The position numbers were made by a program, and so were the translations under genes. The notes under the pieces were generated by a model. That model searched no databases, was not told where the DNA came from, and saw only the letters and a list, made by a program, of their open reading frames with translations. From positions 19,221-83,220 of IMG/VR virus record IMGVR_UViG_3300037586_005524: 64,000 bases of DNA; one strand, given 5' to 3'. This document shows, one piece after another, positions 16,329 through 49,702 of the stretch. The stretch's first letter is position 1; every line of letters starts with the position of its first letter. Source of the stretch: a virus.

Positions 16329-16337
16329 TTCTTTCTC

Positions 16338-17414: not shown

Positions 17415-17415
17415 T

Positions 17416-20931: not shown

Positions 20932-20933
20932 TT

Positions 20934-21233
20934 TTATTTTTGTGCTGGCTGATCAGCAACTGCATCAATATCTTTTAAATCTTGAAATTGTTCTTCAGCT
21001 TCATCATCAAATTTAACCAAAGGCGGATTCATCACCATCAAACCATCCTCTGATAATCGAAATTTAAATTCTTTTAGCACCGGTACAATATCGCTTTGTT
21101 CCAGCAAAGATCTCTGTAGTGCCATCATAACTGCGCCAACTGCTTGATCTGTCATCGCCATGTTTTTATCTTCTGTCATTTTATTTTTCCTCCAATTCGT
21201 TTTTAAGTGATTTATAACATCGATGTATACCAT
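20934..21233 (-). CDS. Hypothetical protein (true start probably MTEDKN at 21179)
   Basis: GGAG-like RBS precedes the internal ATG right after the upstream stop codon. Confidence 0.6.
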   Translation of the reverse strand: MVYIDVINHLKTNWRKNKMTEDKNMAMTDQAVGAVMMALQRSLLEQSDIVPVLKEFKFRLSEDGLMVMNPPLVKFDDEAEEQFQDLKDIDAVADQPAQK

Positions 21234-22071
21234 TTTGGATATCCATCTCTGCCTTCCATCCTAATTCTTTAAGGGGCAATACGTTGCCTTGTGTATACAA
21301 TACATCGCCTTTTCTTTCTTCTATATAATCAAATGTTACATCTGGAAAATATTTTAGAACAATCTCTTTGATCTCGTTTAAAGAAATGTTACTGCCTGTC
21401 CCAATGTCAAAATGCCGTCCATTGAAATTTTCTTTGTGCTCCATTGCAAAAAGATTAGCCGATACAACATCGCCTAAATATGCCATATCTCTTCTTTGTT
21501 CACCATTCCCTGTGATAAAAGGATTTTTACCTTTTCTTATATGTTCCATCCAATTAGCAATTGCCGTGGCATATGGCCCTTGAGCTTCTTGGTCTTCTGA
21601 ATAAACATTAAAATATCGTAAACTAACTGTGTCTAAACCATATAAATCAGAATATAGTTTGCATTCCATTTCGGAAATTAATTTTTGTAGCCCATATGGA
21701 TTTGTGGGGCCGGATCCATTTCCATTTACAGATGAGGATCCGGAATAGATGACTCGTTTGACGCCAGCTTTTCTAGCAAAATTAAGAATATAGGTTGTTG
21801 CTAATACATTATTTTCCATTGTCTCTACTGGCTTTTCTACACTGTATGCAACTCTTGGAATACAAGCTAGGTGAAAAATATATTCTGGTTTGAAATCAAA
21901 ATAATGTGGGTGGAATCTTTGGCTGCCGTCTGAATATTCTTTAAGATCTTTTACAATATTGCATCCTTCAAAAAGATCGATTCCTTGTACTTCGTGTCCT
22001 AATTCTTGTAATTTTTTATATACGCGAGAGCCAATATATCCTCTATGCCCCGTCACCAAACATCTAGCCAT
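21181..22071 (-). CDS. NAD-dependent nucleotide-sugar epimerase/dehydratase (extended SDR)
   Basis: VTGHRGYIG Rossmann motif, SSS, YGLQK (YxxxK), LRYFNVY. Confidence 0.9.
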   Translation of the reverse strand: MARCLVTGHRGYIGSRVYKKLQELGHEVQGIDLFEGCNIVKDLKEYSDGSQRFHPHYFDFKPEYIFHLACIPRVAYSVEKPVETMENNVLATTYILNFARKAGVKRVIYSGSSSVNGNGSGPTNPYGLQKLISEMECKLYSDLYGLDTVSLRYFNVYSEDQEAQGPYATAIANWMEHIRKGKNPFITGNGEQRRDMAYLGDVVSANLFAMEHKENFNGRHFDIGTGSNISLNEIKEIVLKYFPDVTFDYIEERKGDVLYTQGNVLPLKELGWKAEMDIQNGIHRCYKSLKNELEEK

Positions 22072-22918
22072 TATTTTTTTCCTTTGTTACTGCACCTTCG
22101 ATATCTTTCCAATCATGCTCTTCTCTTACTTCAAGATTTTTTTGCCAAACGGACTTCATAACCTTTGGGTCAATGCCAATTTCTTCAAATAATCCAATAA
22201 ATGCATTTAAGTCTTTTGGAAAACATTTTCCTCCAAAACCAAGGGAGTCATCATGGCCAGGAACATCTAAATGAGAATTTCCAATTCTTCCATCAGAAAC
22301 AAATCCATGCATTGTGTCCTCCCAGCTTACATTAAGTTCATCTGCTGCTTGCTTCATTTCATTCATAAAAGAAACTTTAGTAGCAAAAAAACAATTTGCC
22401 ATATATTTTATAAACTGCGCAGTTGTTACATCTGTTTTAATAATTTTAATATACGGAAATCTACTCTTTATAAGCTTTTCTGCCTCATCAAGCAAATCTG
22501 GGCGGCCACCTAATATAATTCGAGAGGCATTAATAAAATCTAGCCGCGCGCTGCGCTCAGTTAAAAATTCTGGACTGTGTATAATATTAAGATTAGGATA
22601 TTTAAAAATCAAATCTTCCATGATGCCTGGTACAACGGTTGATTTAACTATAAAAATATTATCAGTTCTTTCATTTATTTCAGATATTTGATTGAAAGCA
22701 GAATACATAATATTTGTATCAATTTTTCCACCTAAAGCATCTTTCATCGGAGTTGGAACAGAAACAAAAATGAATTTTGAAGAGTTTATAACCTCACTCA
22801 TTGAGTGTGTAGACTTCTCTGGATTTATATCATATATTTTAATATTTGCATGGAGAGAAAACCCATGTGCGATAGCAGATCCTACAAAACCATTCCCTAT
22901 TATTCCTATATTGTACAT
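22064..22918 (-). CDS. UDP-glucose/GDP-mannose 6-dehydrogenase family (short form lacking the C-terminal domain)
   Basis: GNGFVG, VPTP, KSTVVPG, PEFL, KYMAN...K.SF.NE, GFGGKCFPKD catalytic Cys motif. Confidence 0.9.
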   Translation of the reverse strand: MYNIGIIGNGFVGSAIAHGFSLHANIKIYDINPEKSTHSMSEVINSSKFIFVSVPTPMKDALGGKIDTNIMYSAFNQISEINERTDNIFIVKSTVVPGIMEDLIFKYPNLNIIHSPEFLTERSARLDFINASRIILGGRPDLLDEAEKLIKSRFPYIKIIKTDVTTAQFIKYMANCFFATKVSFMNEMKQAADELNVSWEDTMHGFVSDGRIGNSHLDVPGHDDSLGFGGKCFPKDLNAFIGLFEEIGIDPKVMKSVWQKNLEVREEHDWKDIEGAVTKEKNNG

Positions 22919-22961
22919 TTATTCCTCGAAAACACTTACGCAGTTATTATTTTAGCACACT

Positions 22962-23720
22962 TTAGTTTATATGTTTAATAATAAATTTCTCAAATAATTT
23001 AACTGATTGATTTAAATTTAAGCTTTCAGTGTCAATAATTAAATCTGGGTCAATTGGCTCATCAAATGAATCAGAAATTCCAGTAAAATTGTATACTTTA
23101 CTTGGGTCTCCATCTGGAAGAAGGGCTCGCCTGTATAGGCCTTTGGTGTCTCTTCTTTTTAACTCTTCTAAGCTACACTTAACATAAACCAATTTTGATT
23201 TTGGAATTACTTTTCTAACATGCTGTCTTGTGGAATTATAAGGATTAATTGCAGACATAACGCAAACAACGTTATTTCGGCCTAACACCTTCCCCACAAA
23301 CGATAGCCTTTTTATATTTGTTTCGCGATCTTTTTTAGAAAATCCTAAATCTTTACAAAGGTTGTTTCTGTATTCGTCGCCGTCGATGATCTCTATTTTA
23401 ATGCCACGTTTTCTTATTTTTTTTTCAATAGATCTAGCTAGTGTTGTTTTGCCGGCGCCGCTCATACCTGTCATCTGAATATACAATCCTTTTGTTTTGC
23501 CCCACTTTACTTTATTCCAGACATGTTCGTGGGTCATAAATAAAACCAACATTAAAGCGTGATATATAATTGCAACAAACCCGGTTTCTTTTAAAGAACC
23601 CGTAATAATATAAGCTACTAATGAAAGCACCAAAAAACCTAGAAGTTTCCAACTAAGTGCTTTGCTGAAACTTCTTCTTGTAGAATCAATCAAAATAGAT
23701 CCTCCATTGTTTTTTCCCAA
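22962..23720 (-). CDS. cysC: Adenylyl-sulfate (APS) kinase with N-terminal DUF2061-like membrane domain
   Basis: TGMSGAGKTT P-loop, DGD, DLGFS..DR..NI.R, RDTKGLY, FTGISD.FD.P; N-terminal RSFSKALSW...HE..W with two hydrophobic helices. Confidence 0.9.
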   Translation of the reverse strand: MGKNNGGSILIDSTRRSFSKALSWKLLGFLVLSLVAYIITGSLKETGFVAIIYHALMLVLFMTHEHVWNKVKWGKTKGLYIQMTGMSGAGKTTLARSIEKKIRKRGIKIEIIDGDEYRNNLCKDLGFSKKDRETNIKRLSFVGKVLGRNNVVCVMSAINPYNSTRQHVRKVIPKSKLVYVKCSLEELKRRDTKGLYRRALLPDGDPSKVYNFTGISDSFDEPIDPDLIIDTESLNLNQSVKLFEKFIIKHIN

Positions 23721-24031
23721 CTCGTAAAGTGATACGCGCGGTCATCGATATATATCCTAGCTGGCACTTTTGTGTTTGTCACCTCGTCGAAGCAATCTTC
23801 TAGATCATATTTTTTAAGCCATTCATGAATAGGCTCTACAGGACGACTTGAAAATATAACCAATCTAAACCCTCTTTTTTTAAGTTCTCTTATGGACTCG
23901 GCCGCACCGTCGTGTGGCGGATCGTATGTATTATATAAACCCTGCCAGCCTTTAGAATATTTATGGATAACTCCATCAAAATCTATAGCAATTGTATTGT
24001 TTTTTATCTTGTACGATATCTCTTTTGGCAT
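23690..24031 (-). CDS. Small capless HAD-superfamily phosphatase
   Basis: AIDFDGVIH motif I, SSR motif II, K and YIDDRA motifs III/IV. Confidence 0.8.
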   Translation of the reverse strand: MPKEISYKIKNNTIAIDFDGVIHKYSKGWQGLYNTYDPPHDGAAESIRELKKRGFRLVIFSSRPVEPIHEWLKKYDLEDCFDEVTNTKVPARIYIDDRAYHFTSWEKTMEDLF

Positions 24032-24037
24032 TATTCT

Positions 24038-24853
24038 TTATTCTCCTAATATTTCTTTCTCAACGAATGATTTCCAATCACTATAAGTTGTCTTCTTACG
24101 TTTGAAATATCTATTATCTTTTTTTAGTGTGCCGCGGCCGAGATGCATAAAAATAATATTCCCTGAGTCGTCGACTGCGCGGTCTGTCGTAAGAAAAGTA
24201 AAAGAATTTGGTAATTCAAAATCAACATTATTATTAAAAGTGTTTTTACTACAAAAATACTTTAAGTTAAATTTATTACAATATGCAGTATATGCATCAC
24301 AAACGTCTATCTCGTCTTTAACATCTAAAGTTTTTCTTGTAGATTTTATTTCTTCTATTTTTTCTTTAGTTAATCCTTCTAACCTTGGATGGCCTTCTCT
24401 CAAGATTGGGAAACATGAAACTTTTTTAGCCAATTCTGTTGTCAACAACATACCTGATGAATGGACTGCATTTATTCTCGTATTATCTAAAAGCGTGCCC
24501 GCGATTGAATAGCCTTTTTGTATTTTCTCGTATAAATAATTCATCCAATTTTCATGACAAGCCGCAACGTCATTATGGCACATAAAAACTAAATCCGACT
24601 GTACATGTTCCAAACCAACTTCAATCGCCTCTGCGTGTGCTGCAGCCGCAAGATAACAACATTTTTGTTGATTTGAAACCCAAACAACATTTTCCGATAA
24701 AGATAAAATTTCGTCTTTATAAGATTCATCCGAAGCATTTTCTACTACAATATATCTAAATTCAAAATTGTTTTTATATTTTTCAAAAGAACGTATACAT
24801 AGAGATGTCAAGCCCTTAGAATGATAAGATGGTATAATAAAATCAATATTCAT
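24038..24853 (-). CDS. Glycosyltransferase, GT2/GT-A fold
   Basis: FIIPSY, VVENAS, HND in place of DxD. Confidence 0.75.
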   Translation of the reverse strand: MNIDFIIPSYHSKGLTSLCIRSFEKYKNNFEFRYIVVENASDESYKDEILSLSENVVWVSNQQKCCYLAAAAHAEAIEVGLEHVQSDLVFMCHNDVAACHENWMNYLYEKIQKGYSIAGTLLDNTRINAVHSSGMLLTTELAKKVSCFPILREGHPRLEGLTKEKIEEIKSTRKTLDVKDEIDVCDAYTAYCNKFNLKYFCSKNTFNNNVDFELPNSFTFLTTDRAVDDSGNIIFMHLGRGTLKKDNRYFKRKKTTYSDWKSFVEKEILGE

Positions 24854-24863
24854 TTTTTACTCC

Positions 24864-25958
24864 CTACAAAAAGTTGATATCTTTAGTTTCTTTTGGATGT
24901 GTTAAAAAGTCTATCAGTTTATTTGGTTCCGCCAGTTTACAGCACATTTGGCATTTTGTTTTATAATCCATGCTTCTAACATATTTAATTGCTTCTTTTC
25001 TTTGGTCTGATCCCCATATTTCTTTAAAAGAAGATTGATATATGTTTCCAAAAGATAATTTTTTATTCATGGGATGGTAGGTGCATACCTTAACTTCCCC
25101 AGTTGCATCTAAAATAGGTTCAAAAAAGTGCCCCTCACAGCTTCTAAAATTATATGCGGTGCCATTTTTAAGATCATGTCTTTTGTCGTCGCTTAAATTA
25201 ATTTTAACATTTTTAGCGTTATTATCTAAATAATTCCACACATCTACATTAATCTCGGCTGTACCAGTTTTTTTATACGCTGTTTCGGCTTCTTTATAAT
25301 ATCGTGGAAGAATTGGCCTAAACTGTAAATAAGCAATATCATCTGTTTCGCCTACCCAATCTATCAATTGTTTTGCATGCTCAATCGTTATATTGGGACC
25401 TACGTTACAATTGATTCCAATTTTAGCTGGGTATTGTGCTAACTCTTCTACATTTCTTTTGATTACTTTTACACCATCAACCTCTTTCCATTCTTTATAT
25501 TTTTCAGCATCAAGAGTGTCTAAAGAAATGCGCATCCATTCAAAATTTTCGCCTATTAATTTATTATACTTTTTCTTATAAACGGCATTTGTCATTAAAC
25601 CAAGTTGCAAACCCATTTCTTTAGCATACAATACAGCTTCTTCGAAGTGTGGGTAAAAAGTTGGCTCACCTTGCCCAGCATATGTAATCGCTTTGCCGCC
25701 CATTTCAGCAAAATCCTTAAGATATCTTTTAAGAGCCTCTATTTCCAAGTGGGCACCAAATTTATTATCTCTTCCATTTTCCGTAATGCACCAGTAACAA
25801 GCCATATTACACTTGTTTGTTAAGCCAACTTCCATAAAAATGGGACAATCTGTGTCTCCAGTGGAAAGATACTGGTGTAACTTATCAAAATGTAAAATTA
25901 ATTTTGCTTGTGTGCCAAATGGGTTTGCGCCTGAAAATCTTACGTATTCATTACTCAT
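24864..25958 (-). CDS. Radical SAM protein with SPASM/twitch-like C-terminal domain
   Basis: CNMACYWC (CxxxCxxC), GQGEP, ISLD, C-terminal C...GEVKVC...FGNI...EIW...CQMCC. Confidence 0.9.
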   Translation of the reverse strand: MSNEYVRFSGANPFGTQAKLILHFDKLHQYLSTGDTDCPIFMEVGLTNKCNMACYWCITENGRDNKFGAHLEIEALKRYLKDFAEMGGKAITYAGQGEPTFYPHFEEAVLYAKEMGLQLGLMTNAVYKKKYNKLIGENFEWMRISLDTLDAEKYKEWKEVDGVKVIKRNVEELAQYPAKIGINCNVGPNITIEHAKQLIDWVGETDDIAYLQFRPILPRYYKEAETAYKKTGTAEINVDVWNYLDNNAKNVKINLSDDKRHDLKNGTAYNFRSCEGHFFEPILDATGEVKVCTYHPMNKKLSFGNIYQSSFKEIWGSDQRKEAIKYVRSMDYKTKCQMCCKLAEPNKLIDFLTHPKETKDINFL

Positions 25959-25960
25959 CT

Positions 25961-26800
25961 TTAATATTCCTTTTGATTTTTAATTAACATTTCTATTCCA
26001 TCCCATATGCTATATTTTGGCTTAAACCCCAAATTATTTAATTTTGCAACGTCCAAATACATATCTTTAACTTGTACTGTTTTATGAAAATGTGGTGGTT
26101 CTACAGAAATAAAATTACTCTTTGAGTTTGTTCGTTGTTTAACATAATTCATCATATCTATAAACCTATGTGGTGTCCCGCTTCCAATATTAATAATTTC
26201 ATTTAAAGGAGCTTCTTTCACAACAAGATTTATCGCACGACATACATCTTCTACATGCATAAAATCTCTTATATCTTCACCAGAATTATATAAATTAATG
26301 TCTTTACTATTAACAACCTCTCCTATTAAATATTGTAATGCGTTTCTTTTTTTAGAAACTTTTTTATCTTCTATTCCATATATATTACAAAGTCTTAAAA
26401 TTCTATAATTAATATCAAATGTTTCGCAGTAAGATATTAATAATTGTTCAGCCGTCCTTTTAGTAATAGAGTAAAATCCTTTAGGGTTACAACAAGATTC
26501 TTCTTTAGCAGGAAGATCATCGGTCTTGCCATACACAAACCATGAACTAATAAAATTAAAGACTATATTTTCTTTATCTCTACATTTTTCCAGCACGCTA
26601 ACTAATAAATTTAAATTCGTATTAATATCCAAGTGTGGGTTCTCAAATACATTATAATTATTATTAGTACTTATAAAATATATAATATCCTTTGTTTCTG
26701 AAGAGAGTTGAAAACGTGGGACAGTCAAAGACTCAGTAGCATATATATTAGAGTACACGCTGCCTATAAATCCTGTGGCGCCAAAAATTGCTATCTTCAT
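25961..26800 (-). CDS. NAD-dependent nucleotide-sugar epimerase/dehydratase
   Basis: GATGFIG, SS..VYG, YSITK, RDFMHVED. Confidence 0.88.
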   Translation of the reverse strand: MKIAIFGATGFIGSVYSNIYATESLTVPRFQLSSETKDIIYFISTNNNYNVFENPHLDINTNLNLLVSVLEKCRDKENIVFNFISSWFVYGKTDDLPAKEESCCNPKGFYSITKRTAEQLLISYCETFDINYRILRLCNIYGIEDKKVSKKRNALQYLIGEVVNSKDINLYNSGEDIRDFMHVEDVCRAINLVVKEAPLNEIINIGSGTPHRFIDMMNYVKQRTNSKSNFISVEPPHFHKTVQVKDMYLDVAKLNNLGFKPKYSIWDGIEMLIKNQKEY

Positions 26801-27456
26801 GTTTCTTTCCTTTTATTACAAGACAATAAAATATATAATTGTGGTGGTGCGTTAGCCAATGTACCAGCTTTGATGTGGACAATCTCATCACTGGTACCGC
26901 CCCATAATGCCTTCATATTATATGATAAATCAAAATATTTTTTAATATATTTAATTGGCAAAATTTCTGGTATTTCTTCGTAAGCGGCTTTTTTAACGTC
27001 AAAATATTCATATTGTCTTACCCTTGATTCGAATAAGCTATATTCTTCATCTTTTAAAAAGGAGTCATCCCAAACACCAGACCAAAGATAATTATCATCT
27101 TCGTAGGCATATTCATGTTCTCCATCTTTAACCCATCCTATTTTATAATTTTCAAACCTCCAATGATCGCCTAAACCCCAATCAACATATAATTTTCCTC
27201 CATCATTAAGACTATTATAACAACGCTTTATAAAATCTTTTGGGTTTTTTGCAAAATAAGCAGTACGAGTACAGATAATAGTATCGTATTTCTTTTTTAG
27301 CTCCCAACTATCATTTATATTCCAGTTATTTAACTGTAGGTCATATAAATCCCCATCAAACCAATTATTATCAACAAAGCCCAATAAAGCAGCTTCTCCT
27401 TGTGGCTTAATATGCTCTTTATAAAAGTCATATATATATGGATCACTTCTTCCCAT
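26797..27456 (-). CDS. Divergent SAM-dependent methyltransferase-like protein (paralog of 33692-34309)
   Basis: YDTIIC and LNDGGKLYV post-motifs of class I methyltransferases; degenerate motif I. Confidence 0.55.
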   Translation of the reverse strand: MGRSDPYIYDFYKEHIKPQGEAALLGFVDNNWFDGDLYDLQLNNWNINDSWELKKKYDTIICTRTAYFAKNPKDFIKRCYNSLNDGGKLYVDWGLGDHWRFENYKIGWVKDGEHEYAYEDDNYLWSGVWDDSFLKDEEYSLFESRVRQYEYFDVKKAAYEEIPEILPIKYIKKYFDLSYNMKALWGGTSDEIVHIKAGTLANAPPQLYILLSCNKRKET

Positions 27457-27465
27457 GATAACCTC

Positions 27466-28140
27466 TCAAAATTCGTAATTAAACAAGTTTAAATCTTTTT
27501 CGTATAACTCTTCAATGATCTTTCTTGTATCGTCAGTGTAATATTTTTTATATTTATCCCTTTTCGGAGTTATATTAGTTTTATTTATAGACCTGGGAAG
27601 GGGCAAATTTAGCTGCTCAAATATATTTTGTAAATCAATGTCAAAATTTTGTAGTTTGCCAACATAATCAGGAATAAGTTTATTATTTTTATTATATGCA
27701 TAAAGATATTGAGGACATATATGATTTGGTTGTGTTCGACCCAGCCATTTATAATATTCTTTTGTATTAACAGCTTTTTTAACTTTTTGTACAAAATCGT
27801 CAAACGCTATATTAGACTCAATACCATATGTGTCTTGTGAATAGTGATAAACAGAAACAAGCCTATCAAATGGATTTCTAACAAATGTAAACTTCCAGGC
27901 ATTTGAAAAATCTTTTTCATTAAAAGTTTTCATGTTATAGTGCTGCTCTAATGTATAATGATGTGGCTTACAATGATATCCATATTTTTGGGCTCGCTCT
28001 CTTTGGTCGATATCATAGTCCCTACTTGACATAACTGCATCTAAATTATGCCAATCTTCATTTGGCAAATAACTATGAACTGTCGATCCTGCACATTTAG
28101 GGTTATGTAAAAAAATATATTTTCTCATGGGTTTACACAA
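27466..28140 (-). CDS. Sulfotransferase (Sulfotransfer_2, carbohydrate sulfotransferase-like)
   Basis: FLHNPKCAGST 5'-PSB motif; FVRNPFDRLVSVY 3'-PB motif; C-terminal LYEKDL..F.Y. Confidence 0.9.
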   Translation of the reverse strand: MCKPMRKYIFLHNPKCAGSTVHSYLPNEDWHNLDAVMSSRDYDIDQRERAQKYGYHCKPHHYTLEQHYNMKTFNEKDFSNAWKFTFVRNPFDRLVSVYHYSQDTYGIESNIAFDDFVQKVKKAVNTKEYYKWLGRTQPNHICPQYLYAYNKNNKLIPDYVGKLQNFDIDLQNIFEQLNLPLPRSINKTNITPKRDKYKKYYTDDTRKIIEELYEKDLNLFNYEF

Positions 28141-29096
28141 TTTTGTATTTTTGATTTTTCAAAAAAATCTTTAATTGTTCTCCATCCTTTAACTTTTAGT
28201 TCTCTAAACGACTCATCTGTAAAAAAGGCCGCATGTGGTGTTATACAAAACCTGCTTTTAATCCAAGGCTCCTTTTTTCTCCAAGCGCTAATAAGAGGAT
28301 GTTCTTCGGGAGGAGGTTCTATTTCTAAAACATCCATACCAGCAGCTTTAATTTTATTGTTTTTCAAAGCCCAATAAAGATCGTCTAAGCTTATTATCTC
28401 ACCTCTTGCTGTATTAATTAAGATACAATTTTCTTTCATTTGAGAAAATTGATCTTTGCCTATTAGTTCTTTTGTTTCTTCTGTTAAAGGAGTATGTATG
28501 GAAATGATATCATTATTTGAAAGAAGCTCATCAAAATCTACTTTTTCTACCCCCAATGATTTATCTATTCCAGCAGCAACATAAGGATCATAATATTGTA
28601 TATTTAAACCAAAAGCTTTTGCTCTTAAAGCAACTGCAATGCCAATGCGCCCTAAGCCAATTAAGCCAATATTTTTGCCACGCAACCTAAAAAGACTTTT
28701 TGGCAAAAATGGATCCCAAATATCGCTTTCATTATAAGAATTAATATTCCTCACAAGATTCAATAATAAGGCCATCGTATGATCTGCAACGACATCCGTG
28801 CCATAATCTGGTATATTAGAAACTACAATATTTTCTTTTTTCGCCCGCAATAAATCAATATTGTCATATCCAACGCCCATACGAACTATTATAGAACATT
28901 TTTCCATAGTGTCAAAAGATATGTTGCTTATAGGAATTTCATGCCACACAACAAGTGCGTCTGCATCTTTTATATAGGGCTGGATATCTTCTTCTGTTTC
29001 TGCATTTAAAAATATAACAGTATAAGGATCATCAAGTACTGCTATCTCCTCTTTTGTCCTTTCTGTAATAAAATCAGTAACTACGATTTTTTTCAT
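28125..29096 (-). CDS. D-isomer-specific 2-hydroxyacid dehydrogenase (CtBP/SerA-like)
   Basis: GVGYDNID, GLGRIG, INTARG, DVLEIEP, TPHAA (Arg/Glu/His triad). Confidence 0.92.
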   Translation of the reverse strand: MKKIVVTDFITERTKEEIAVLDDPYTVIFLNAETEEDIQPYIKDADALVVWHEIPISNISFDTMEKCSIIVRMGVGYDNIDLLRAKKENIVVSNIPDYGTDVVADHTMALLLNLVRNINSYNESDIWDPFLPKSLFRLRGKNIGLIGLGRIGIAVALRAKAFGLNIQYYDPYVAAGIDKSLGVEKVDFDELLSNNDIISIHTPLTEETKELIGKDQFSQMKENCILINTARGEIISLDDLYWALKNNKIKAAGMDVLEIEPPPEEHPLISAWRKKEPWIKSRFCITPHAAFFTDESFRELKVKGWRTIKDFFEKSKIQNCVNP

Positions 29097-29869: not shown

Positions 29870-29871
29870 TT

Positions 29872-32981: not shown

Positions 32982-32994
32982 TGGTCTCCCAAAT

Positions 32995-34309: not shown

Positions 34310-34337
34310 AAATTGATTCTCCCGTTTTTATAATATA

Positions 34338-35246: not shown

Positions 35247-35256
35247 TTGTCATTCT

Positions 35257-37007: not shown

Positions 37008-37008
37008 C

Positions 37009-40224: not shown

Positions 40225-40239
40225 TATTACACCTTTTCC

Positions 40240-41172: not shown

Positions 41173-41173
41173 A

Positions 41174-42001
41174 TCACTCCTCTCTCATCCCCTCAAATAC
41201 CGTTGTTTTATACTTTGAATTTTCTTCTAATAACATTTCAAAAAATCCTACATCTAGTTTTAAATTTTTTACCATGGCTGCTATAGTTCTTGTATCTTTT
41301 GGCAAACACGGCCCACCAAAACCTCTAAAATCTTCATTGCAGTTCAAATAAACATCATTAATATGATTTCTTTGTGTTATTGTGTTTTTTATTTTAGTAT
41401 AATCGGCGCCGGCGGCCTTGCATACTTCATAAAAGCTATTTGCAAAAGTTACCAAAGTTGCATTATAAATATTATTGAAATATTTAATAAATTCTGCTTC
41501 TAAAGGAGATAGTTGTACAAACTTTTTTGGATAATATCCATGTACATTTTTTAACATTTCATATGTCGAGAAATTATCAGTGCCTATAACACACAAATCA
41601 TGATTATCAATAAAATCTGCAACTGCACATCTTTCTCTAAGAAATTCCGGAATAAAGCATAATTCTAAGTTTGGATACGTTTTTGAAAATTTATTTATAG
41701 TTCCAGGAGCAACTGTAGATTTTATAGCAACAATTCCTTCATAATTATATTCATTTAAATCATCTACTACCATTTCAACAATGTCAGTGTCGCACTCTCC
41801 ATTTTCTTTAGATGGAGTTGGAACACAAACAAAACAGATATCAGTATCAAGCACATCTCTAATAGAAGAATCATATTTTATATCATGCACTCTCATATTA
41901 TGACCTAATTTTTTTAATCCTTCATGGACGGCGGCGCCAACTATGCCGGCGCCAATAATACCAATTTTCATATTATTTTTCTCCAGAAATTTTTGTAACA
42001 A
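41174..42001 (-). CDS. UDP-glucose/GDP-mannose 6-dehydrogenase family, second short-form copy (true start probably MKIGIIG)
   Basis: GAGIVG, CVPTP, KSTVAPG, PEFLRE, GFGGPCLPKD. Confidence 0.9.
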   Translation of the reverse strand: MLQKFLEKNNMKIGIIGAGIVGAAVHEGLKKLGHNMRVHDIKYDSSIRDVLDTDICFVCVPTPSKENGECDTDIVEMVVDDLNEYNYEGIVAIKSTVAPGTINKFSKTYPNLELCFIPEFLRERCAVADFIDNHDLCVIGTDNFSTYEMLKNVHGYYPKKFVQLSPLEAEFIKYFNNIYNATLVTFANSFYEVCKAAGADYTKIKNTITQRNHINDVYLNCNEDFRGFGGPCLPKDTRTIAAMVKNLKLDVGFFEMLLEENSKYKTTVFEGMREE

Positions 42002-42935
42002 TAAAAGTATAAGGACTTGGATGTGAATAAACTATTTTAAGACCTATACTCTGAACAAAATAAGAAATTTCACTAGGATCATAAGTCCATATATATGGAG
42101 TTGTACAATCTTCTAAATGTAGTGCTTCTTCAATTTTTTTTATAGAATATTTTTTACATAATTTTTTAAGGCCGCTTATCATATTCGAGTATTTTGTGTC
42201 TTTAACCAAAAGCATATCTTTTAAGCTTTTTTGTTTTTTTTCATAATGCCATAATTTTCCTATAATTTTTAAAAACTCATAAGTGTTTTCTAAACTTTCA
42301 TTTAAAAATATTTCTCTTATATCCCAAGTGATTTGTGGGACATCGTTATCAGTAAAAAAATTAAAAATTAAAAACCCATTTGGTTTCAGTAAGTGTGACA
42401 AATCTTTTAATGTTTTTTTATAATCGCGTTGATGGTGTAGCGCCATATGATGAATAATCACATCAAATTGTTCTGAATTAAATACATTTGTAATCTCTTC
42501 TATATCTGTCTGCAAAAAACAAAAATTCTCTAAAGGGTTTTTTAAATTATTTAAATTAATAATATTATTAAAAAAAATATTTTCTTCTTTTCTATAAGGA
42601 ATTCTTTTATTTTTAAGGGCCTCGTGGGTCATTTTTGGACCAACATAAGAGCCATCTGCTGCGCACACAAATTTGGCGCCTAATTCAGCCGCAACTATAG
42701 AAAATCTACCAAGGCCCGAGCATGCATCTAAAACTACTTTATCTTTAAAATTTATATTTCCTCCGGAAAACCGCAAAAACTTTTGAATTCGAGATTTTCC
42801 CCAAGAGTCATCAAGGAAATCTCTTGATTGCAGTTCCCACATTCTATCATACAAATCATTATTTTTAGCCTTATTGTTTACATAAACGCCTTTACAATTT
42901 TTTAAAGAATCAAAATCTTTAAATATATTAATCAT
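41973..42935 (-). CDS. Class I SAM-dependent methyltransferase
   Basis: VLDACSGLGRF, FDVII....LHH, LLKPNG. Confidence 0.85.
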   Translation of the reverse strand: MINIFKDFDSLKNCKGVYVNNKAKNNDLYDRMWELQSRDFLDDSWGKSRIQKFLRFSGGNINFKDKVVLDACSGLGRFSIVAAELGAKFVCAADGSYVGPKMTHEALKNKRIPYRKEENIFFNNIINLNNLKNPLENFCFLQTDIEEITNVFNSEQFDVIIHHMALHHQRDYKKTLKDLSHLLKPNGFLIFNFFTDNDVPQITWDIREIFLNESLENTYEFLKIIGKLWHYEKKQKSLKDMLLVKDTKYSNMISGLKKLCKKYSIKKIEEALHLEDCTTPYIWTYDPSEISYFVQSIGLKIVYSHPSPYTFIVTKISGEK

Positions 42936-43857
42936 TTTGTTCTCCTATAGTTTTTGTGAACAAGCCTGCGTACTCTTCAACGAGATTGTGCATGTCATAT
43001 CTTTTAACGTTATTATAGCAAATATTTATATCATTATTAATTGGAAAATACATATTTTTAGGTATATCTACCACACAATTTTTGTTTAAAACCGCAGTAG
43101 CCATGCCCACATCCCTCGATATTATAGGGATTTTCATTGCAGAGGCTTCTAAAATTGCTTGTGGACCTCCCTCTACTCTCGATGCAACTATATATAAATC
43201 ACAACAAGCATACATATCTTTTAATGTTTCTAGTGGCGCCATCTCTATAAAGTGAAAATTAATATTTTCTTCTTCGAGGCGATTAATTATATATTGTCTT
43301 CTCCAACCGCCTAACAACACAAATAAATTGTCTTTATTAATTTTTTTAAGAGTCTCAACGAATAAATCTGGGCCTTTTTCGAGTTTTGGGCTTATTAAGT
43401 CTGAGCCTTCTGTATCCCTCTGAAAGCTTCCAACAACATAAGCATCAGCAGGAATTTTTAATTCTTCTCTAGCTTTATATTTGTCAGTCGGGCTCCATAT
43501 TTTTGAATTATACCAATATCCAATAACCTCTACTGGTTTTTTTGTCATTTTAGAAATAAAATCCTTGGTTTTTTGACAAGGAGTGTGATAACAATCTACA
43601 TATTTGTCTCTTACAAGAAACTCACGAAGAGAGTCTTTACTAAACTTTTCAGGCACAACGTGGTGAATAGTAACTACAACTTTCTTTTCAATAAGAAATT
43701 TTGCTGGTATATTCCTCCAAAGCCACGGACTAATAATCCACAACAAATTTGCATTGTTTAAATTATCTGTATGATATTGTGGTTTAAGTTCTCGCCATTC
43801 CTTGACAATTCTATCAAGAATCCAATTTTCTTTTGGTGCTAGTGAAAAAATCTTCAT
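42928..43857 (-). CDS. Glycosyltransferase, GT4/GT-B fold
   Basis: KGPD, DLYIVASRVEGGPQAILEA. Confidence 0.88.
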   Translation of the reverse strand: MKIFSLAPKENWILDRIVKEWRELKPQYHTDNLNNANLLWIISPWLWRNIPAKFLIEKKVVVTIHHVVPEKFSKDSLREFLVRDKYVDCYHTPCQKTKDFISKMTKKPVEVIGYWYNSKIWSPTDKYKAREELKIPADAYVVGSFQRDTEGSDLISPKLEKGPDLFVETLKKINKDNLFVLLGGWRRQYIINRLEEENINFHFIEMAPLETLKDMYACCDLYIVASRVEGGPQAILEASAMKIPIISRDVGMATAVLNKNCVVDIPKNMYFPINNDINICYNNVKRYDMHNLVEEYAGLFTKTIGEQND

Positions 43858-44719
43858 ATTTTTTTGCTACTTTCCTCATATCATAATCGCTATCATGATT
43901 ATTTTTTATTTTTTTTGTAAAGTCCATTGGTGGTGGTTCATATAATTTTACGGGCTCGAAGTCCCACTCGTCTTCTTTAATAATAATGGCGTTTGGACCT
44001 GCTATTTCTTTTGTTCCACCTGCAGAAGAACATATGATTTGACATCCACTTGCACGAGCATCAACAACAACATTTGGACAGTGATCAAGCCACGCTAAAT
44101 GTATGAAATATTTAGATCTTTTATATAAAGAAATAAGTTGTAAAATGTTTGTGTTGCCAATATAAAAGATTCTATCATCTTTTAAAATATCTTCGTTCTT
44201 TTCGCCGGCGATTACTAAACAATCTTTTTCAGAAGAGTGTTCTAAAAAATAATTCATATTCTCCGACAATCTTTTGTGTGGGCGCCAAGATGAAGCACAG
44301 CACCATACATTTTCATATTTATCTAATCGCGAATTAAAAGAGTGTGGCACTTTATCAATGTATTCAATATCAGCGCCATTGTGTATAACAATGGAATTTT
44401 TATGTTCTCCAAAATATTTTGTTATAAGCTGCTTATTAAAATTTGATTGAAAAATGGCGCCATCAGCACCGTCATAAGTCCTTTTTATGTTTGTATTCCG
44501 TATTCTGTAATTTTGCGCTGTGTTGAAATATATGCCGTCTAATCTTTGAAATAATGGTATATTATCAAAAGTACTTCTATAAGATTCTATAAAACATAAT
44601 CTTGCATCCGGGGCTTTATTTATATCAAAAGTCGTATCTAAGTATTTCATCAATTTTGAAGCAAAGTGGTTTGGCCCAGATGTGCTTCGCAAATCAACGT
44701 TTTCTAAGTGTATATTCAT
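43814..44719 (-). CDS. Glycosyltransferase, GT4/GT-B fold
   Basis: SGPNHF, IHNG, RPHKR, DHCPNVVVDARASG...I....GG..E. Confidence 0.85.
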   Translation of the reverse strand: MNIHLENVDLRSTSGPNHFASKLMKYLDTTFDINKAPDARLCFIESYRSTFDNIPLFQRLDGIYFNTAQNYRIRNTNIKRTYDGADGAIFQSNFNKQLITKYFGEHKNSIVIHNGADIEYIDKVPHSFNSRLDKYENVWCCASSWRPHKRLSENMNYFLEHSSEKDCLVIAGEKNEDILKDDRIFYIGNTNILQLISLYKRSKYFIHLAWLDHCPNVVVDARASGCQIICSSAGGTKEIAGPNAIIIKEDEWDFEPVKLYEPPPMDFTKKIKNNHDSDYDMRKVAKKYEDFFTSTKRKLDS

Positions 44720-46332
44720 ATTCTTGTGTATGGTTTCTTATTTCTGATTATTTGTGCTAATTCAGATTGTTTCTGTGCTTTGATTTTATCTATATTCAAG
44801 GGATTTTCTTTATTATATACGTGCAAAACCTCTGGAATATATTTAGAACGCTCTGAGGCCATTTCTAAAAGTGGCAGCATTATTGCCTGATCGTAGGTCA
44901 TTTCATAATATTTGTTATTGTCTTTCAAATCATTTTTATCTAAATTTTTCCATAGCTTATATTTAAAAGTTCTTAGGTGCGAAGCTCTCCATTGATCTTC
45001 TCTGAAAGAATTTGTTTTAATAACTTCTTCTGGGTATTTAGATGGTTCTACGCCTTGTTGTCCACCTGGATTGTAGATATAGCTACCATAAGTCATTAAT
45101 GTATTATCTTCGTATGCATTGTAAAGCCTGTCTAGGGTTCTAGACGATGCAAACCAATCGTCGCCATCAAGCAAAATATTTACATCGTTATCGTCGCACT
45201 CTAAGCTATCAATTCCTGCTACGATGTTTGCTAATGCATATTTTTTAGTTTTATTTATAATGAGCTTAAATCGATTATCCCCAGATATTTCATCTTTTAC
45301 AATATTTTTTGAATTGTCGGTTGATACATCGTCGATAAGTACACAAGTAAAATTTTTATATTTTTGTTTTTTAATGCTTTTTATACATTTTTTAATCCAT
45401 TTTTCGCAATTATAAAAAGGAACAATAATATTAAATTTAGTTAGACTATCGTTTGCCGTATCTTTTGGCAAATTTAGATAATCTTTTGCAATTTTTTCAA
45501 TCTCATCCCAAAAAATGCTTGTTCTTTGTTTCAAATAGTCTAAAGTTGATTCTTTGTTAGAGAACCATTCTTCATCTTTATGTTGTACATTGGTGTTTAA
45601 AATAAGGTTACAGTTTAAAAGTCTAGCTTCGATGGTCATTCTTGGACAAGTGTCGCCGGCTTTTGGAAAAAATATTATTCCTTTTGATTTGGCCAGCTTC
45701 TTAAGAAGTTCTTTGTGTTCTAGGCCCCAAACTAATTCATAATTTAAATTATTTTTTTCTGCGTATTCTACAGCGTCTTCAACACCTTTAATCCATGATG
45801 AAGAGTTTAATATTAAATACTTATCTTCTTTTTCGCTAACATCAAGCGATTTGATATGTCTTAATGTATTCTCAGAAAAAACAGAACTTAATACTTTATT
45901 ATTAGATTTTTTTAAAAATGGAAAGATTTCTTGATATCTATTCTTTTGTTTGTGTGACATCCACCAGGTCATTTTTGAATTATATAAAAATAAAGAAACA
46001 ATTTTTCCGTTTTTACTATCATGGCAATTGCACTCTCCACCTAAAGAAACATGTTTCCCTGGTGATCGAAAATCACAATATTTATAATCATACTCTAGTA
46101 CGCTATAATTTAAATGTTTGGCAGCATATAATAGACAGTCTTTTGGAACAAACGCAAAGTTTCCAAAAATCCAAAAGGCTTCTTTATGTTTTTCCATCAA
46201 ATGTAGTAGATTTGAGCTTTGGGAGTTTATCCTATTACAAGGAAGTAAACTATCTAGTATTATTGCTTCCGTGGTTAATTCGGCGCCGCCCTCATATTGG
46301 CTAGCAAACATATCTGCTACAAATATGATCAT
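44716..46332 (-). CDS. Two-domain glycosyltransferase (N-terminal GT-B-like plus C-terminal GT2)
   Basis: N-terminal GGAE...KG...DTCPRMTIEA; C-terminal IIVPFYN, IDDVSTD, LDGDD. Confidence 0.85.
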   Translation of the reverse strand: MIIFVADMFASQYEGGAELTTEAIILDSLLPCNRINSQSSNLLHLMEKHKEAFWIFGNFAFVPKDCLLYAAKHLNYSVLEYDYKYCDFRSPGKHVSLGGECNCHDSKNGKIVSLFLYNSKMTWWMSHKQKNRYQEIFPFLKKSNNKVLSSVFSENTLRHIKSLDVSEKEDKYLILNSSSWIKGVEDAVEYAEKNNLNYELVWGLEHKELLKKLAKSKGIIFFPKAGDTCPRMTIEARLLNCNLILNTNVQHKDEEWFSNKESTLDYLKQRTSIFWDEIEKIAKDYLNLPKDTANDSLTKFNIIVPFYNCEKWIKKCIKSIKKQKYKNFTCVLIDDVSTDNSKNIVKDEISGDNRFKLIINKTKKYALANIVAGIDSLECDDNDVNILLDGDDWFASSRTLDRLYNAYEDNTLMTYGSYIYNPGGQQGVEPSKYPEEVIKTNSFREDQWRASHLRTFKYKLWKNLDKNDLKDNNKYYEMTYDQAIMLPLLEMASERSKYIPEVLHVYNKENPLNIDKIKAQKQSELAQIIRNKKPYTRI

Positions 46333-47615
46333 TTATTATTTTCTGCCATTAATTGGGTGAATAGAGCATCAACTTCTTGATCTTCTGCGTCGTTTGAAAT
46401 TAAAGATTTTACTATATCCGTAACTTTTTTGTATTGTTTTTCTGATGTAAAGTTATTGCATATATGCTTTTTAAGTTTTTCTGCTTGCGATTTAAACCTG
46501 CCATAGTCTTTATATACTTCTCTTAATCTCATTTTATATGAACCTTGTTTGGGATAACACCACATTGAATCTTCCACCAATACATTTTTCCAAACAACTT
46601 CTTTTTGAACCGGAGCTAAATCATAATCAACTTTTGCGTAATAAGGTTTATTTTTAATCTTGCCTTTCTTATCCTTTACGGGTATATATAAATAATCTAT
46701 ATGACCGCTCCAATCAGGTGCAATAACTGGTAATCCGTTATACGCCGCTTCAAATATTGGGAGGCCAAATCCTTCTCCATGCGCTAAAGATATTAAAGCT
46801 TTTATTTTATTATGAAAATATAAAGAATTCATTTCCTCTGCAGTAAGATCCCCATGAAGTAAATAAATTTTGCATTTCTTTTGCGGATAATTTTTACTTA
46901 TATTTTTAATTCTCATTTCCGTTTCACGATAATCTATCATGGAGTTATTAACAATATTTACTTTTAATATTAATCCAACTTCTTGATCTATAAATTCTTC
47001 AATAAACCAAGATATTGTATTCTCTAAGTTTTTTCTTGGCGACCATTGTGCATTTACTAAAAAATTAAAATCTGTAGTTAAATTTAAGTTAATTTCTTTC
47101 ACATCAGTTTGTCTAACTGGATAGTGTACTACTTCAATTGGAGTTGTGCAGTGAAAACTCTTATTAACTATTTGCCCTGTTTGATCATTTGTTACTGTAT
47201 AGTTCGTATTAGCATATGAATATTTTGAAAATTGAGAAATTGTGATAATTTGATCGACAAGATTCCCCTTCTCAATCCACACGGGGGCGACGCGAGTTGT
47301 CTCAATGCCGGCAGTAACTCCAATATTTACTGGTGCCGCTTTCTCCCACTCATTTGGTATTGTAACTTGTATCGACATGTCGTAATTTGATGTCGGTGTT
47401 TGTTGTTGATAAGCTGCCGTTTTTGCTATAATAGAATCTAACCAGCGTCTTTCTTCTGTGTCTTCGTATATCCAACCAGTATTACCCCAATTAACAGGAA
47501 TCATATATATATCAAATAAATCTTCGTGTTGTCTTAAAGACCTTAAAATAAAACGAGTGTGTTCACCATACCCACTTCTGGTCAACGCTGGACCTCTTAC
47601 TAAAACTTTTTTCAT
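46329..47615 (-). CDS. Glycosyltransferase, GT4/GT-B fold
   Basis: SGYG, RKN, HGEGFGLPIFEAAYNGLPVIA. Confidence 0.9.
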   Translation of the reverse strand: MKKVLVRGPALTRSGYGEHTRFILRSLRQHEDLFDIYMIPVNWGNTGWIYEDTEERRWLDSIIAKTAAYQQQTPTSNYDMSIQVTIPNEWEKAAPVNIGVTAGIETTRVAPVWIEKGNLVDQIITISQFSKYSYANTNYTVTNDQTGQIVNKSFHCTTPIEVVHYPVRQTDVKEINLNLTTDFNFLVNAQWSPRKNLENTISWFIEEFIDQEVGLILKVNIVNNSMIDYRETEMRIKNISKNYPQKKCKIYLLHGDLTAEEMNSLYFHNKIKALISLAHGEGFGLPIFEAAYNGLPVIAPDWSGHIDYLYIPVKDKKGKIKNKPYYAKVDYDLAPVQKEVVWKNVLVEDSMWCYPKQGSYKMRLREVYKDYGRFKSQAEKLKKHICNNFTSEKQYKKVTDIVKSLISNDAEDQEVDALFTQLMAENNK

Positions 47616-48895
47616 ATTACCTCTTTAAATTCCCATGATTTATAATTTTTTCTGTTTTCCCATGATCCCATTTCATTATAAATGTATGTAAAAAGATTGT
47701 CCCACTTTTTCATAATTTTTTCGCGATTATAAGCAGTAATAACATGTTGGCGGCCTTTTTTGCCCATCTTTTCTCTTTCTTCTTTTGTCATATTATACAT
47801 TTTTTCCATCGCATCAGCTACCTCTTTACCATCAAGACGATCTTCATAAATCCATGGAATTTCTTGAGATCCAATTATTGCTTTTGAAGAAGGTTCGATG
47901 CCGATACCAAACCAATTTTCTCCGTCTGTGACTTGCTCTTGAAGGCCTCCAGTCATTGTTACAATTATTGGTGTCTCGCATGCCAGCGATTCGAATGTTG
48001 CTAAACCAAACCCTTCTGCGTCGGCTATATTAATTGTGCAATCAGCTAAATTATATAATTTGGCTAAAACCTCTGGAGGATACTTTTGTGTAGAAAACAT
48101 TACTTCGCTATTTACCAACCCTATTTCATTTATTATTGCTTCTAAATCTTGACCGTGTTTATCTCTTACATCGGTGTGCATGATTAGTGAGGCTTTATCG
48201 TGGCCCACTCTATCCAAGAAGTCTTTAAACCAAAATATTATACTCCCGCTTTGTTTTCTTCGGGCGTTTCTGTTGTTCCAGAAAAATATAAATTTTTTCT
48301 CGCCATCATTACCGATAAAATTGTTTTTTTCAACTAGGCCGGAGCTTTTAAGATCATCAACTTCTTCTTCAGAGTATTTTTTAAAGATATTTTCATCAAT
48401 AACGTGAGGAATATATTCTTTTTTAACACTAGGTGCAACAATACCAACAACTTTATCGGTAACTTTAGAAATAGTTGCAATATAATCGTTTGATTCATAA
48501 TATTGTTTGTTGAAAGTTGGCGCAGGAAAATTGTCCCAAACATGATAATACACCATTGGAGCAAGAGATCTAATTTCATGTTCCATATGCCAAAGCCAGC
48601 CCCAAAATCGTGGATCAGTCATGAACCACACTATATCTGGTTTTTCAAGCCGAAGTATGCTACGTACCATTTCTTGATTTCCATAGCCATCAATAGGATG
48701 GATCACCCAATCGTCTCCCCATTCTTGCGTTTTCACTATATCATAATTTTCATGCTTCATGGCGCCGCCTAAACTAATAAAACTATATTTTCCAGTTTTT
48801 AGCATGGCTTCAATAATATATTTTGTTTGTGTACCGATACCTGATGGGGAAAAGGGATGGTCACTTAAAGTTAAAATTTTAATTTTTTTATCCAT
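47612..48895 (-). CDS. Glycosyltransferase, GT4/GT-B fold
   Basis: SDHP..PSG, NRNARRK, AEGFGLATFESLACETPII. Confidence 0.9.
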   Translation of the reverse strand: MDKKIKILTLSDHPFSPSGIGTQTKYIIEAMLKTGKYSFISLGGAMKHENYDIVKTQEWGDDWVIHPIDGYGNQEMVRSILRLEKPDIVWFMTDPRFWGWLWHMEHEIRSLAPMVYYHVWDNFPAPTFNKQYYESNDYIATISKVTDKVVGIVAPSVKKEYIPHVIDENIFKKYSEEEVDDLKSSGLVEKNNFIGNDGEKKFIFFWNNRNARRKQSGSIIFWFKDFLDRVGHDKASLIMHTDVRDKHGQDLEAIINEIGLVNSEVMFSTQKYPPEVLAKLYNLADCTINIADAEGFGLATFESLACETPIIVTMTGGLQEQVTDGENWFGIGIEPSSKAIIGSQEIPWIYEDRLDGKEVADAMEKMYNMTKEEREKMGKKGRQHVITAYNREKIMKKWDNLFTYIYNEMGSWENRKNYKSWEFKEVI

Positions 48896-48904
48896 ATATA
48901 CCTC

Positions 48905-49693: not shown

Positions 49694-49702
49694 ATTTGCC
49701 TC

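Follow-up and report, generated by a model that had tools for sequence, protein, structure and literature searches.

Large clusters of sugar-related genes have been described in several marine myoviruses. The Prochlorococcus phage P-SSM2 has 24 'LPS' (lipopolysaccharide) genes in two clusters (PMC1079782), the cyanomyovirus S-SCSM2R has 22 such genes, 13 of which encode glycosyltransferases (GTs; PMC12801897), and LPS-like genes are found in hypervariable regions of pelagimyophages (PMC7029224). The published reading of these clusters is modification of the host O-chain (PMC1079782, PMC12801897, PMC7029224). Here we discuss a run of 31 genes for glycan synthesis in a 64,000-nt stretch of viral DNA (the window), which is taken from one virus record of 83,220 bp, IMGVR_UViG_3300037586_005524, and spans its bases 19221-83220; coordinates are those of the window unless marked otherwise. 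The record is an 83-kb fragment of a genome from a marine lineage of ~190-kb myoviruses, and nearly all genes of the window are on the minus strand. This lineage has, as a fixed feature, a glycan island that varies from strain to strain, and the 31 genes are one large allele of it. The original prediction, made from the window's sequence, had called a pathway of this complexity highly unusual for a bacteriophage. Because large sugar clusters of marine myoviruses have been published, for P-SSM2, S-SCSM2R and the pelagimyophages, that wording is too strong, and in the window's own lineage the island is a standard feature.

The position of the island (21181-48895) is constant, between the gene for a gp55-like late sigma factor (19708-20403, minus strand; PHROG 234), which has hundreds of relatives at 63-78% identity, and the gene for a PD-(D/E)XK exonuclease (48905-49693, minus strand; PHROG 1218/69), which has 101. 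The gap from sigma to nuclease gene ranges from 10.0 to 28.7 kb across 14 contigs with both anchors, and that of the window, 28.5 kb, is near the top. The only conserved genes of the island are two that adjoin the nuclease gene, each encoding a family 4 glycosyltransferase (GT4). Counted over nuclease-anchored loci having enough downstream sequence, the one directly after the nuclease gene (cGT2, 47612-48895, minus strand; PHROG 2170, E 2.8e-23) is present at 67 of 68 loci, and the next (cGT1, 46329-47615, minus strand) at 65 of 66. The interior is hypervariable. When pooled, 1325 island-side open reading frames (ORFs) form 436 clusters, 267 of them singletons, and the relatives' genes include those for NeuB, CMP-transferases, GT11 and RfaE-like proteins (CMP, cytidine monophosphate). 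A fixed position, a conserved edge and a hypervariable interior are the pattern of an O-antigen locus.

The lineage includes five complete relatives of 186-191 kb (CheckV 100%), two of which have terminal repeats. Positive controls rang in the searches of these genomes for Bac_transf, WecA/MraY-type, Wzx, Wzy_C and ThyA-like families. Among cultured phages, Flavobacterium phage vB_FspM_immuto and Microcystis phage Mel-JY01 are nearest, and both share the gene order nuclease-GT-GT-sugar genes; Rhodothermus phage RM378 and a 484-kb uncultured phage are more distant relatives. Among 185,579 species genomes, close homologs of cGT2 occur only on contigs with the same phage gene order. Comparison of synteny in related phage contigs, which the original prediction had put forward as a check, shows a fixed locus, syntenic flanks and a conserved GT pair.

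Both core enzymes are modelled by AlphaFold2 with a GT-B fold, at a predicted local distance difference test score (pLDDT) of 87 for cGT2 and 92 for cGT1. Two glutamates are invariant in each, E294 and E302 in cGT2 and E281 and E289 in cGT1, with the EX7E-like spacing of GT4 enzymes. The top fold match of both is B736L of chlorovirus NY-2A (3oy2), a protein whose own acceptor is unknown (PMC9614988). The match of cGT1 to 3oy2 has a VIA-align Z of 31.5, ~3 units over the next matches, and the sequence identity of the core GTs to B736L is only 16-19%. The protein O-GlcNAc transferases GtfA/B and SdgB were in the Foldseek top 10 for cGT1 and outside the VIA-align top 50. An acceptor was not deduced from the core GT folds, because the GT-B fold is generic to GT4 enzymes and GtfA/B and SdgB were lost on re-ranking.

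A mechanism may be proposed for how the island works. Judged by their family assignments, its enzymes would make uronic, amino-deoxy and CMP/CDP-activated acidic sugars (CDP, cytidine diphosphate). Eight Leloir glycosyltransferases and one TagF-like transferase would assemble the glycan in the cytoplasm, with cGT2 and cGT1 starting the chain on a conserved acceptor and the variable interior genes extending and decorating it. The tailoring would consist of methylation, carbamoylation, deacetylation and sulfation dependent on 3'-phosphoadenosine 5'-phosphosulfate (PAPS). Since the interior genes vary, different strains would carry different glycans. The likeliest targets would be proteins of the phage's own distal tail. 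Ser and Thr residues in their hydrophobic-[ST]-[GAS]-S motifs would be O-glycosylated, either ahead of virion assembly or while it proceeds, which would give the host-recognition apparatus a sugar coat that varies. That the island's strain-variable glycan is carried by the phage's own distal tail proteins, and is started by the core GT pair, is the reading we favor, with a confidence that falls a little short of even. More tentatively, the lineage, Immutovirus and Mel-JY01 may all carry a virion 'O-antigen', that is, GT4-started tail O-glycans made strain-specific by an island of 10-29 kb; the glycan of the window would be sulfated, carbamoylated and methylated and would carry an acidic sugar.

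The amino acid sequences of the tail proteins make the virion a plausible target. The tripeptide [ST][GAS]S, compared with composition-preserving shuffles, is enriched in four tail-module proteins of the contig (z 6.4, 4.8, 8.6 and 7.7), and hydrophobic-[ST]-[GAS]-S is 3-5x over composition shuffles; the residue at -1 is hydrophobic in 51 of 79 motif sites. The tripeptide is absent from a neighboring protein of 3040 aa (7206-16328), where 4.5 occurrences are expected. One candidate acceptor is a 546-aa protein (3264-4904, minus strand) encoded after the gp6-like baseplate wedge gene, with 16 motifs against 3.0 expected (z 7.7). Another is a 3064-aa tail-module protein, which has 41 motifs against 12.5 expected over its whole length (z 8.6) and carries a Laminin_G_3 domain; its N-terminal 1086 aa are encoded at 2-3259 (minus strand), and it runs on upstream of the window. 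In genome C1 coordinates, motif-enriched genes are at 1702-3273, 3292-4461 and 13285-22479. Besides Laminin_G_3, no Pfam or PHROGs family was found in the motif-rich tail proteins.

The enrichment repeats in the orthologs of the complete relatives G004 and G005 (z 4.6-11.2), those of the 546-aa protein included. It is seen as well in the distal tail proteins of immuto, where gp169 has 60 motifs against 20 expected (z 9.7), and in the tail proteins of Mel-JY01 (z up to 7.0). No enrichment was found in T4 gp34-38 or in the proteins at matching positions of cyanophage Syn1 (z <=1.6). The motif-enriched phages are thus five carriers of the GT pair, in which the motifs are internal; the carriers form one deep clade, and the negative controls are two. 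The original prediction placed the glycan on a cytoplasmic acceptor, either virion proteins or phage DNA. Motif enrichment makes the first of these plausible, and the second is unlikely, as we discuss below.

Several considerations weigh against a tail acceptor. The enrichment could be a structural feature of the fibers of this clade. The motif evidence is circumstantial. Every phage with the GT pair falls within a single deep clade, which deprives the association of phylogenetic independence, and ~40% of the motif sites keep their position at ~50% identity, which suits a structural role too. The Maf-like family PF01973 (MptE-like), the protein glycosyltransferase of flagellin-type O-glycosylation islands, was not found in the 31 ORFs or the five complete relatives, nor was any other family dedicated to protein glycosylation. 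The GT-B fold matches are uninformative on the acceptor. A DUF2061 domain on the APS kinase of the island, and a PAP2 phosphatase in three of the five complete relatives, are hints of chemistry at the membrane. Nor is any virion of the clade known to carry a glycan.

Kyte-Doolittle hydrophobic segments were scanned over the entire 83-kb contig, and no polytopic membrane ORF was found. The sole membrane-like element of the island is the DUF2061 domain of the APS kinase, with hydrophobic helices at residues 21-39 and 43-61. In a survey of 1267 island-side ORFs from 160 related loci (1.15 Mb), a single ORF, of 145 aa, has at least three hydrophobic segments, and it has three. The initiating transferases PF02397 (WbaP/PglC Bac_transf) and PF00953 (WecA/MraY-type) have no Pfam match in the 31 ORFs or the five complete relatives, and Wzx (PF01943) and Wzy_C (PF04932) are absent from those relatives. 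No polytopic ORF that could be a Wzm-type permease was found in the island or its 160 related counterparts; PF01061 had no search of its own, and the sole ABC_tran match is the sub-threshold P-loop of the APS kinase. In the two fully scanned relatives, G004 and G005, the only polytopic proteins are a tape-measure-like protein of 996 aa and the PAP2 phosphatase, neither of which is a flippase or polymerase.

Only ~44% of the window's own genome is present, so that these negatives rest partly on the relatives. As the five complete relatives lack the export and priming families, the absence is not an artefact of the window. The lack of Wzx, Wzy, Wzz, an exporter, WaaL or a primer, first noticed in the window, therefore extends to the lineage as a whole, as judged from the contig, the five complete genomes and the 160 islands. 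Export or priming genes elsewhere in the genome, which would have overturned the original proposal, were not found in the five complete relatives. The missing genes do not, however, prove that the acceptor is cytoplasmic, because the host could prime undecaprenyl diphosphate (Und-PP) sugars or supply lipid A-core, and could export the product.

A PAP2-family lipid-phosphate phosphatase of ~210 aa is encoded outside the island in three of the five complete relatives, at G005:C1:140454-140879 (five predicted transmembrane helices), G002:C1:155333-155755 and G001:C1:87324-87755. Its presence hints that the phages may act on undecaprenyl-PP, lipid A or phospholipids. The fusion of DUF2061 to APS kinase is kept in 6 related loci.

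A host lipid-linked acceptor is a serious rival, if a doubtful one. Here the soluble enzymes would extend a host-primed acceptor of the Und-PP-GlcNAc type, or lipid A-core, and the Wzx/Wzy, ABC or MsbA/Lpt systems of the host would export the product. LPS or capsule would be changed in infection, with effects such as a block to superinfection or less sticking of progeny to debris. The clusters of P-SSM2, S-SCSM2R and the pelagimyophages have been read as acting on the host envelope (PMC1079782, PMC12801897, PMC7029224). The repertoire of the island is likewise that of an O-antigen locus, with amino-deoxy sugars and uronic acids, and with NeuB, CMP-transferases, GT11 and RfaE-like genes in relatives. 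The hydrophobic DUF2061 anchor and the PAP2 genes point in the same direction. To our knowledge, loci of the lipooligosaccharide (LOS) type are likewise without dedicated flippase and priming genes. Against this reading, no initiating transferase, flippase, polymerase or ligase occurs in the five complete genomes or the 160 islands. The flippases and polymerases of a host tend to be selective for the units that it makes itself, which counts against the use of host export for a foreign glycan. A conserved lipid-linked primer could account for GTs conserved across hosts; the GT pair is, however, a near-universal core of a virulent-looking lineage and is common to phages of Bacteroidota and Cyanobacteria, a conservation unusual for host-surface morons. 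Modification of the host envelope also leaves the motif-laden tail proteins unexplained.

Another cytoplasmic acceptor would be a protein, either one of the host's or a capsid or decoration protein encoded off the contig, or else a small molecule, for example a cofactor or a compatible solute. The head genes lie outside the 83-kb fragment, and the structural neighbors of the core GTs besides B736L include small-molecule enzymes (BshA, MshA, sucrose-phosphate synthase and TreT). Nine transferases and heavy tailoring, however, point to an oligo- or polysaccharide and not to a simple glycoside, and the hypervariability suggests an exposed product under diversifying selection. We consider such an acceptor rather unlikely.

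Glycosylation of phage DNA, as in T4 with its glucosylated hydroxymethylcytosine (hmC) or in arabinosyl-hmC phages, is very improbable. Phage GTs can hypermodify DNA (PMC9614988; PMC6024577), and the island adjoins replication genes. The DNA of the cultured relative immuto_2-6A, however, contained only dA, dC, dT and fdPreQ1 by liquid chromatography with ultraviolet and mass spectrometric detection (PMC10516641). The five complete relatives lack a ThyA-like hydroxymethylase (PF00303), so that the search for hydroxymethyl-base enzymes suggested at the outset came back empty on this point, and they lack TGT/DpdA. Tet/JBP (PF12851) was not found in the relatives either, in a search whose control rang nowhere. 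We know of no DNA modification that combines sulfation, carbamoylation and nine transferases.

The contig is phage DNA and is not chimeric. The gp25/gp6-like baseplate wedge proteins and the gp55-like sigma factor are encoded on one side of the island, and the PD-(D/E)XK exonuclease, PhoH and a PhuZ-like tubulin on the other; these PHROGs assignments agree with the initial placement of the island between a baseplate/sigma module and other phage genes. Relatives of the sigma and nuclease genes, at 50-93% identity, number in the hundreds on IMG/VR marine contigs of up to ~191 kb, and the flanks and both core GTs are syntenic with complete relatives carrying terminal repeats. Four marine runs yielded near-identical contigs that together tile 22501-42500, with even depth. 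Near 38773 all four share a contig break, a junction that none of the listed pieces formally spans; the depth is even on both sides, which argues against a chimera. Of the words sampled from 40000-49700, half or more are present in each of sixteen marine runs, and the GC content of 30-38% is uniform through island and flanks. A chimeric or bacterial contig, which had been named as grounds for abandoning the proposal, is not borne out by synteny, tiled contigs or GC content. An assembly chimera, or a bacterial O-antigen locus misjoined to phage DNA, could be imagined from the origin of the contig as a metagenomic fragment and from the binning of relatives into bacterial and archaeal genomes, and deserves next to no weight given flanks and core GTs syntenic with complete genomes, an interior tiled in four runs and uniform GC.

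Contig breaks or loose ends recur at ~34439, 38080, 38326, 38773 and 41803 in several independent marine runs. They suggest that strains differing within the island co-occur and that the aminotransferase and carbamoyltransferase genes contain recombination breakpoints. Contigs of the lineage also sit in metagenome-assembled genomes (MAGs) labelled Pelagibacter, Woesearchaeota, Maricaulis, Flavobacteriales, Gammaproteobacteria and a WOR-3 'chromosome'. All of them show PhoH-nuclease-cGT2-cGT1 synteny. As the labels are mutually inconsistent and the phage synteny is found throughout, these contigs are mis-binned phage DNA, and the labels were rejected as evidence of the host. A transfer-messenger RNA (tmRNA; 56515-56895, minus strand; Rfam RF00023, 120.7 bits) encodes the tag peptide ANDNVEFDYALAA. 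A degenerate pattern for the tag-coding sequence matched none of 185,579 species genomes, and the tag therefore gives no indication of the host. The PhuZ-like tubulin homolog (55402-56466, minus strand) has a weak match to PHROG 4733 and relatives in only 6 fetched loci. No RNA dataset was found among the listed public runs holding window sequence.

The 31 ORFs of the island are all on the minus strand. Their junctions comprise 18 overlaps, 11 gaps of <=15 nt and two larger gaps (43 and 28 nt), which confirms the description of a co-oriented, overlap-coupled run of ~28 kb. Functions were assigned with Pfam, PHROGs, NCBIfam and a protein Atlas, and the initial list of enzymes was recovered almost item by item. 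Nine transferases (three GT2, five GT4/GT-B and one TagF-like) are accompanied by three short-chain dehydrogenase/reductase (SDR) proteins, two nucleoside diphosphate (NDP) sugar dehydrogenases, a cupin, a DegT aminotransferase, a NodU-like carbamoyltransferase, four methyltransferase-like proteins, a DUF2334 protein, a sulfotransferase with an APS kinase, and a radical SAM/SPASM enzyme. The list had not included the haloacid dehalogenase (HAD)-like genes at 23690 and 30609, or the genes at 28125, 29093, 29872 and 30994. None of the island enzymes meets an NCBIfam equivalog cut-off, and the exact sugars therefore cannot be named.

From the sigma side, the first gene (21181-22071) encodes an SDR NDP-sugar epimerase (Pfam Epimerase, 157 bits) whose ortholog in G005 is 74% identical. 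It is followed by an NDP-sugar dehydrogenase (22064-22918; UDPG_MGDP_dh_N and central domain; TIGR03026, 170 bits, positions 67-298/413). A second dehydrogenase of this kind is encoded at 41174-42001 (UDPG_MGDP_dh_N and central domain; TIGR03026 positions 68-305/413). Both are short, ~280 aa each, with the C-terminal UDP-binding domain unmatched. The G005 ortholog of the first has 285 aa; the short form is thus kept in relatives and is not a local truncation. The APS kinase, which would supply PAPS, has DUF2061 at its N-terminus (22962-23720; APS_kinase 151 bits, DUF2061 37.8 bits). Next are a small HAD-like hydrolase (23690-24031; Pfam Hydrolase, 32.6 bits), a GT2 barely above the cut-off (24038-24853; Glycos_transf_2, 25.5 bits) and the radical SAM/SPASM enzyme (24864-25958; Radical_SAM 73 bits, SPASM 35.4 bits; no NCBIfam equivalog). 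A compact SDR epimerase/dehydratase with an N-terminal GATGFIG motif (25961-26800; Pfam Epimerase, 110 bits) precedes a weak methyltransferase-like protein (26797-27456; Methyltransf_12, E 3.6e-4, below cut-off), which is a paralog of the protein encoded at 33692 (blastp E 1.3e-11), and the sulfotransferase (27466-28140; Sulfotransfer_2, 62.8 bits).

A module of six genes for a CMP/CDP-sugar acid is at 28125-32981. It encodes a D-2-hydroxyacid/phosphoglycerate dehydrogenase (PGDH; 28125-29096; 2-Hacid_dh_C 168.5 bits, PGDH-like 228 bits in NCBIfam), a class II pyruvate aldolase of the HpcH/HpaI family (29093-29869; HpcH_HpaI 99.4 bits, HpaI/GarL-like in NCBIfam) and a cytidylyltransferase of the CMP-sugar-acid type that resembles PseF and KdsB (29872-30612; CTP_transf_3 47.1 bits, PseF-like E 2.8e-18). 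The module also has a small HAD-like protein with no Pfam match (30609-31001), which shares a BLAST cluster with the HAD gene at 23690-24031, and an enzyme like glyceraldehyde-3-phosphate dehydrogenase (GAPDH) and erythrose-4-phosphate dehydrogenase (30994-31974; Gp_dh_C and Gp_dh_N; TIGR01534 247.5 bits, below cut-off). The TagF-like transferase of the Glyphos_transf fold (31971-32981) has no Pfam match and was assigned from the Atlas (0.96; TM 0.80 to PF04464 clusters); it probably uses a CDP- or CMP-activated donor.

Beyond the module is the DUF2334 gene (32995-33699; 48.7 bits), which had been called a deacetylase: the gene is present, with no match to a deacetylase family. The methyltransferase-like protein encoded at 33692-34309 has no Pfam match and an Atlas score of 0.93 to class I methyltransferase clusters. 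A GT4 (34338-35246; Glycos_transf_1, 30.7 bits), an SDR NDP-sugar epimerase/4,6-dehydratase (35257-36243; Pfam Epimerase, 152 bits), a class I S-adenosylmethionine (SAM) methyltransferase (36240-37007; Methyltransf_25, 54.3 bits) and a cupin that resembles the sugar epimerase or isomerase RmlC/FdtA (37009-37509; dTDP_sugar_isom, 34.7 bits) follow. The DegT-family sugar aminotransferase, dependent on pyridoxal phosphate, is LegC/PseC-like (37502-38608; DegT_DnrJ_EryC1, 368 bits), with NCBIfam scores of 277 bits for LegC and 262 bits for PseC, each below its own cut-off. The carbamoyltransferase is of the NodU/CmcH type (38605-40224; Carbam_trans_C 209.8 bits, with Carbam_trans_N; NodU-like E 5.7e-41). 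The remaining interior genes encode a GT2 (40240-41172; Glycos_transf_2, 50 bits), the second short dehydrogenase, another class I SAM methyltransferase (41973-42935; Methyltransf_31, 52.4 bits), two GT4 enzymes (42928-43857 and 43814-44719; Glycos_transf_1, 53.1 and 31.8 bits) and a GT2 with a ~290-aa N-terminal domain that has no assigned function (44716-46332; Glycos_transf_2, 78.7 bits, residues 302-436). This last GT2 gene, which adjoins cGT1, is semi-conserved; its full-length cluster occurs in 8 loci, and it is found in mis-binned MAG contigs too.

Three features of this system were not found in the literature searched: a locus fixed across a lineage, in which two core GT4 genes accompany a variable interior like that of an O-antigen locus; the complete lack of export genes in whole genomes of such a lineage; and the co-occurrence of motif-laden tail proteins, which reaches two cultured phages. 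If the virion bears the glycan, the sugar coats of large marine phages would vary between strains and match bacterial O-antigens in complexity, with a bearing on host recognition, on resistance to host defenses and to losses from grazing or adsorption, and on the diversification of phage 'serotypes'; tail O-glycans would be a serotype-like coat on the host-recognition apparatus itself. If the glycan is on the host, this would be a large example, spanning the lineage, of lytic phages that rewrite the cell surface without export genes of their own. On either reading the fixed locus and its two core GT4 genes are a clear genetic handle, and the cultured relatives vB_FspM_immuto and Mel-JY01 make the question of the acceptor directly testable.

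Among known systems, the glycosylation of mycobacteriophage virions resembles the tail reading in its manner of working: soluble phage GTs modify the phage's own structural proteins in the cytoplasm, a role for which the present enzymes are candidates. As far as these systems are described in the sources cited, they have 1-4 GT genes, and their acceptors are the C-terminal ends of capsid and tail-tube subunits (via PMC12619734, PMC12801897). Here, in contrast, 31 genes include full sugar-nucleotide synthesis, and the candidate acceptors are internal motifs of distal tail proteins. Chloroviruses and giant viruses also encode soluble GTs together with nucleotide-sugar pathways, and their glycans are methylated (PMC9614988, PMC4691112). 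The island shares with them soluble GTs and nucleotide-sugar synthesis without membrane machinery, all 31 products being soluble save for the DUF2061 anchor; unlike chloroviruses, the virus is tailed and its host bacterial. The resemblance is one of similar working and not of common descent.

Bacterial O-antigen, capsule and LOS loci draw on the same enzyme families and likewise have a hypervariable interior between conserved flanks. Unlike O-antigen and capsule loci, the island and the complete relatives have no initiating phosphoglycosyltransferase, Wzx, Wzy/WaaL, Wzz or ABC permease. In immuto and Mel-JY01, whose hosts are known, the homologous GT pair is again directly after the PD-(D/E)XK nuclease and is followed by GT2, aminotransferase, methyltransferase and epimerase genes. 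Identity to cGT2 is only 34-37% and the interior gene sets differ; annotated sugar genes occupy ~11 kb of the stretch viewed in immuto, where they continue past its end, and ~6 kb in Mel-JY01.

The locus has the gene content, the hypervariable island at a fixed position and the marine metagenome origin of the 'LPS/cell-wall gene' clusters of marine myophages. As in P-SSM2, S-SCSM2R and the pelagimyophages, many epimerase, dehydrogenase, aminotransferase and glycosyltransferase genes form a hypervariable set near the tail genes of a large marine myovirus. It differs from those clusters in that its closest isolates are Immutovirus and Mel-JY01 and not cyanophages or HTVC008M, in that sulfation, carbamoylation and a radical SAM enzyme are included, and in its form, a single contiguous run of 31 genes whose position is fixed and whose anchor is the pair of core GT4 genes.

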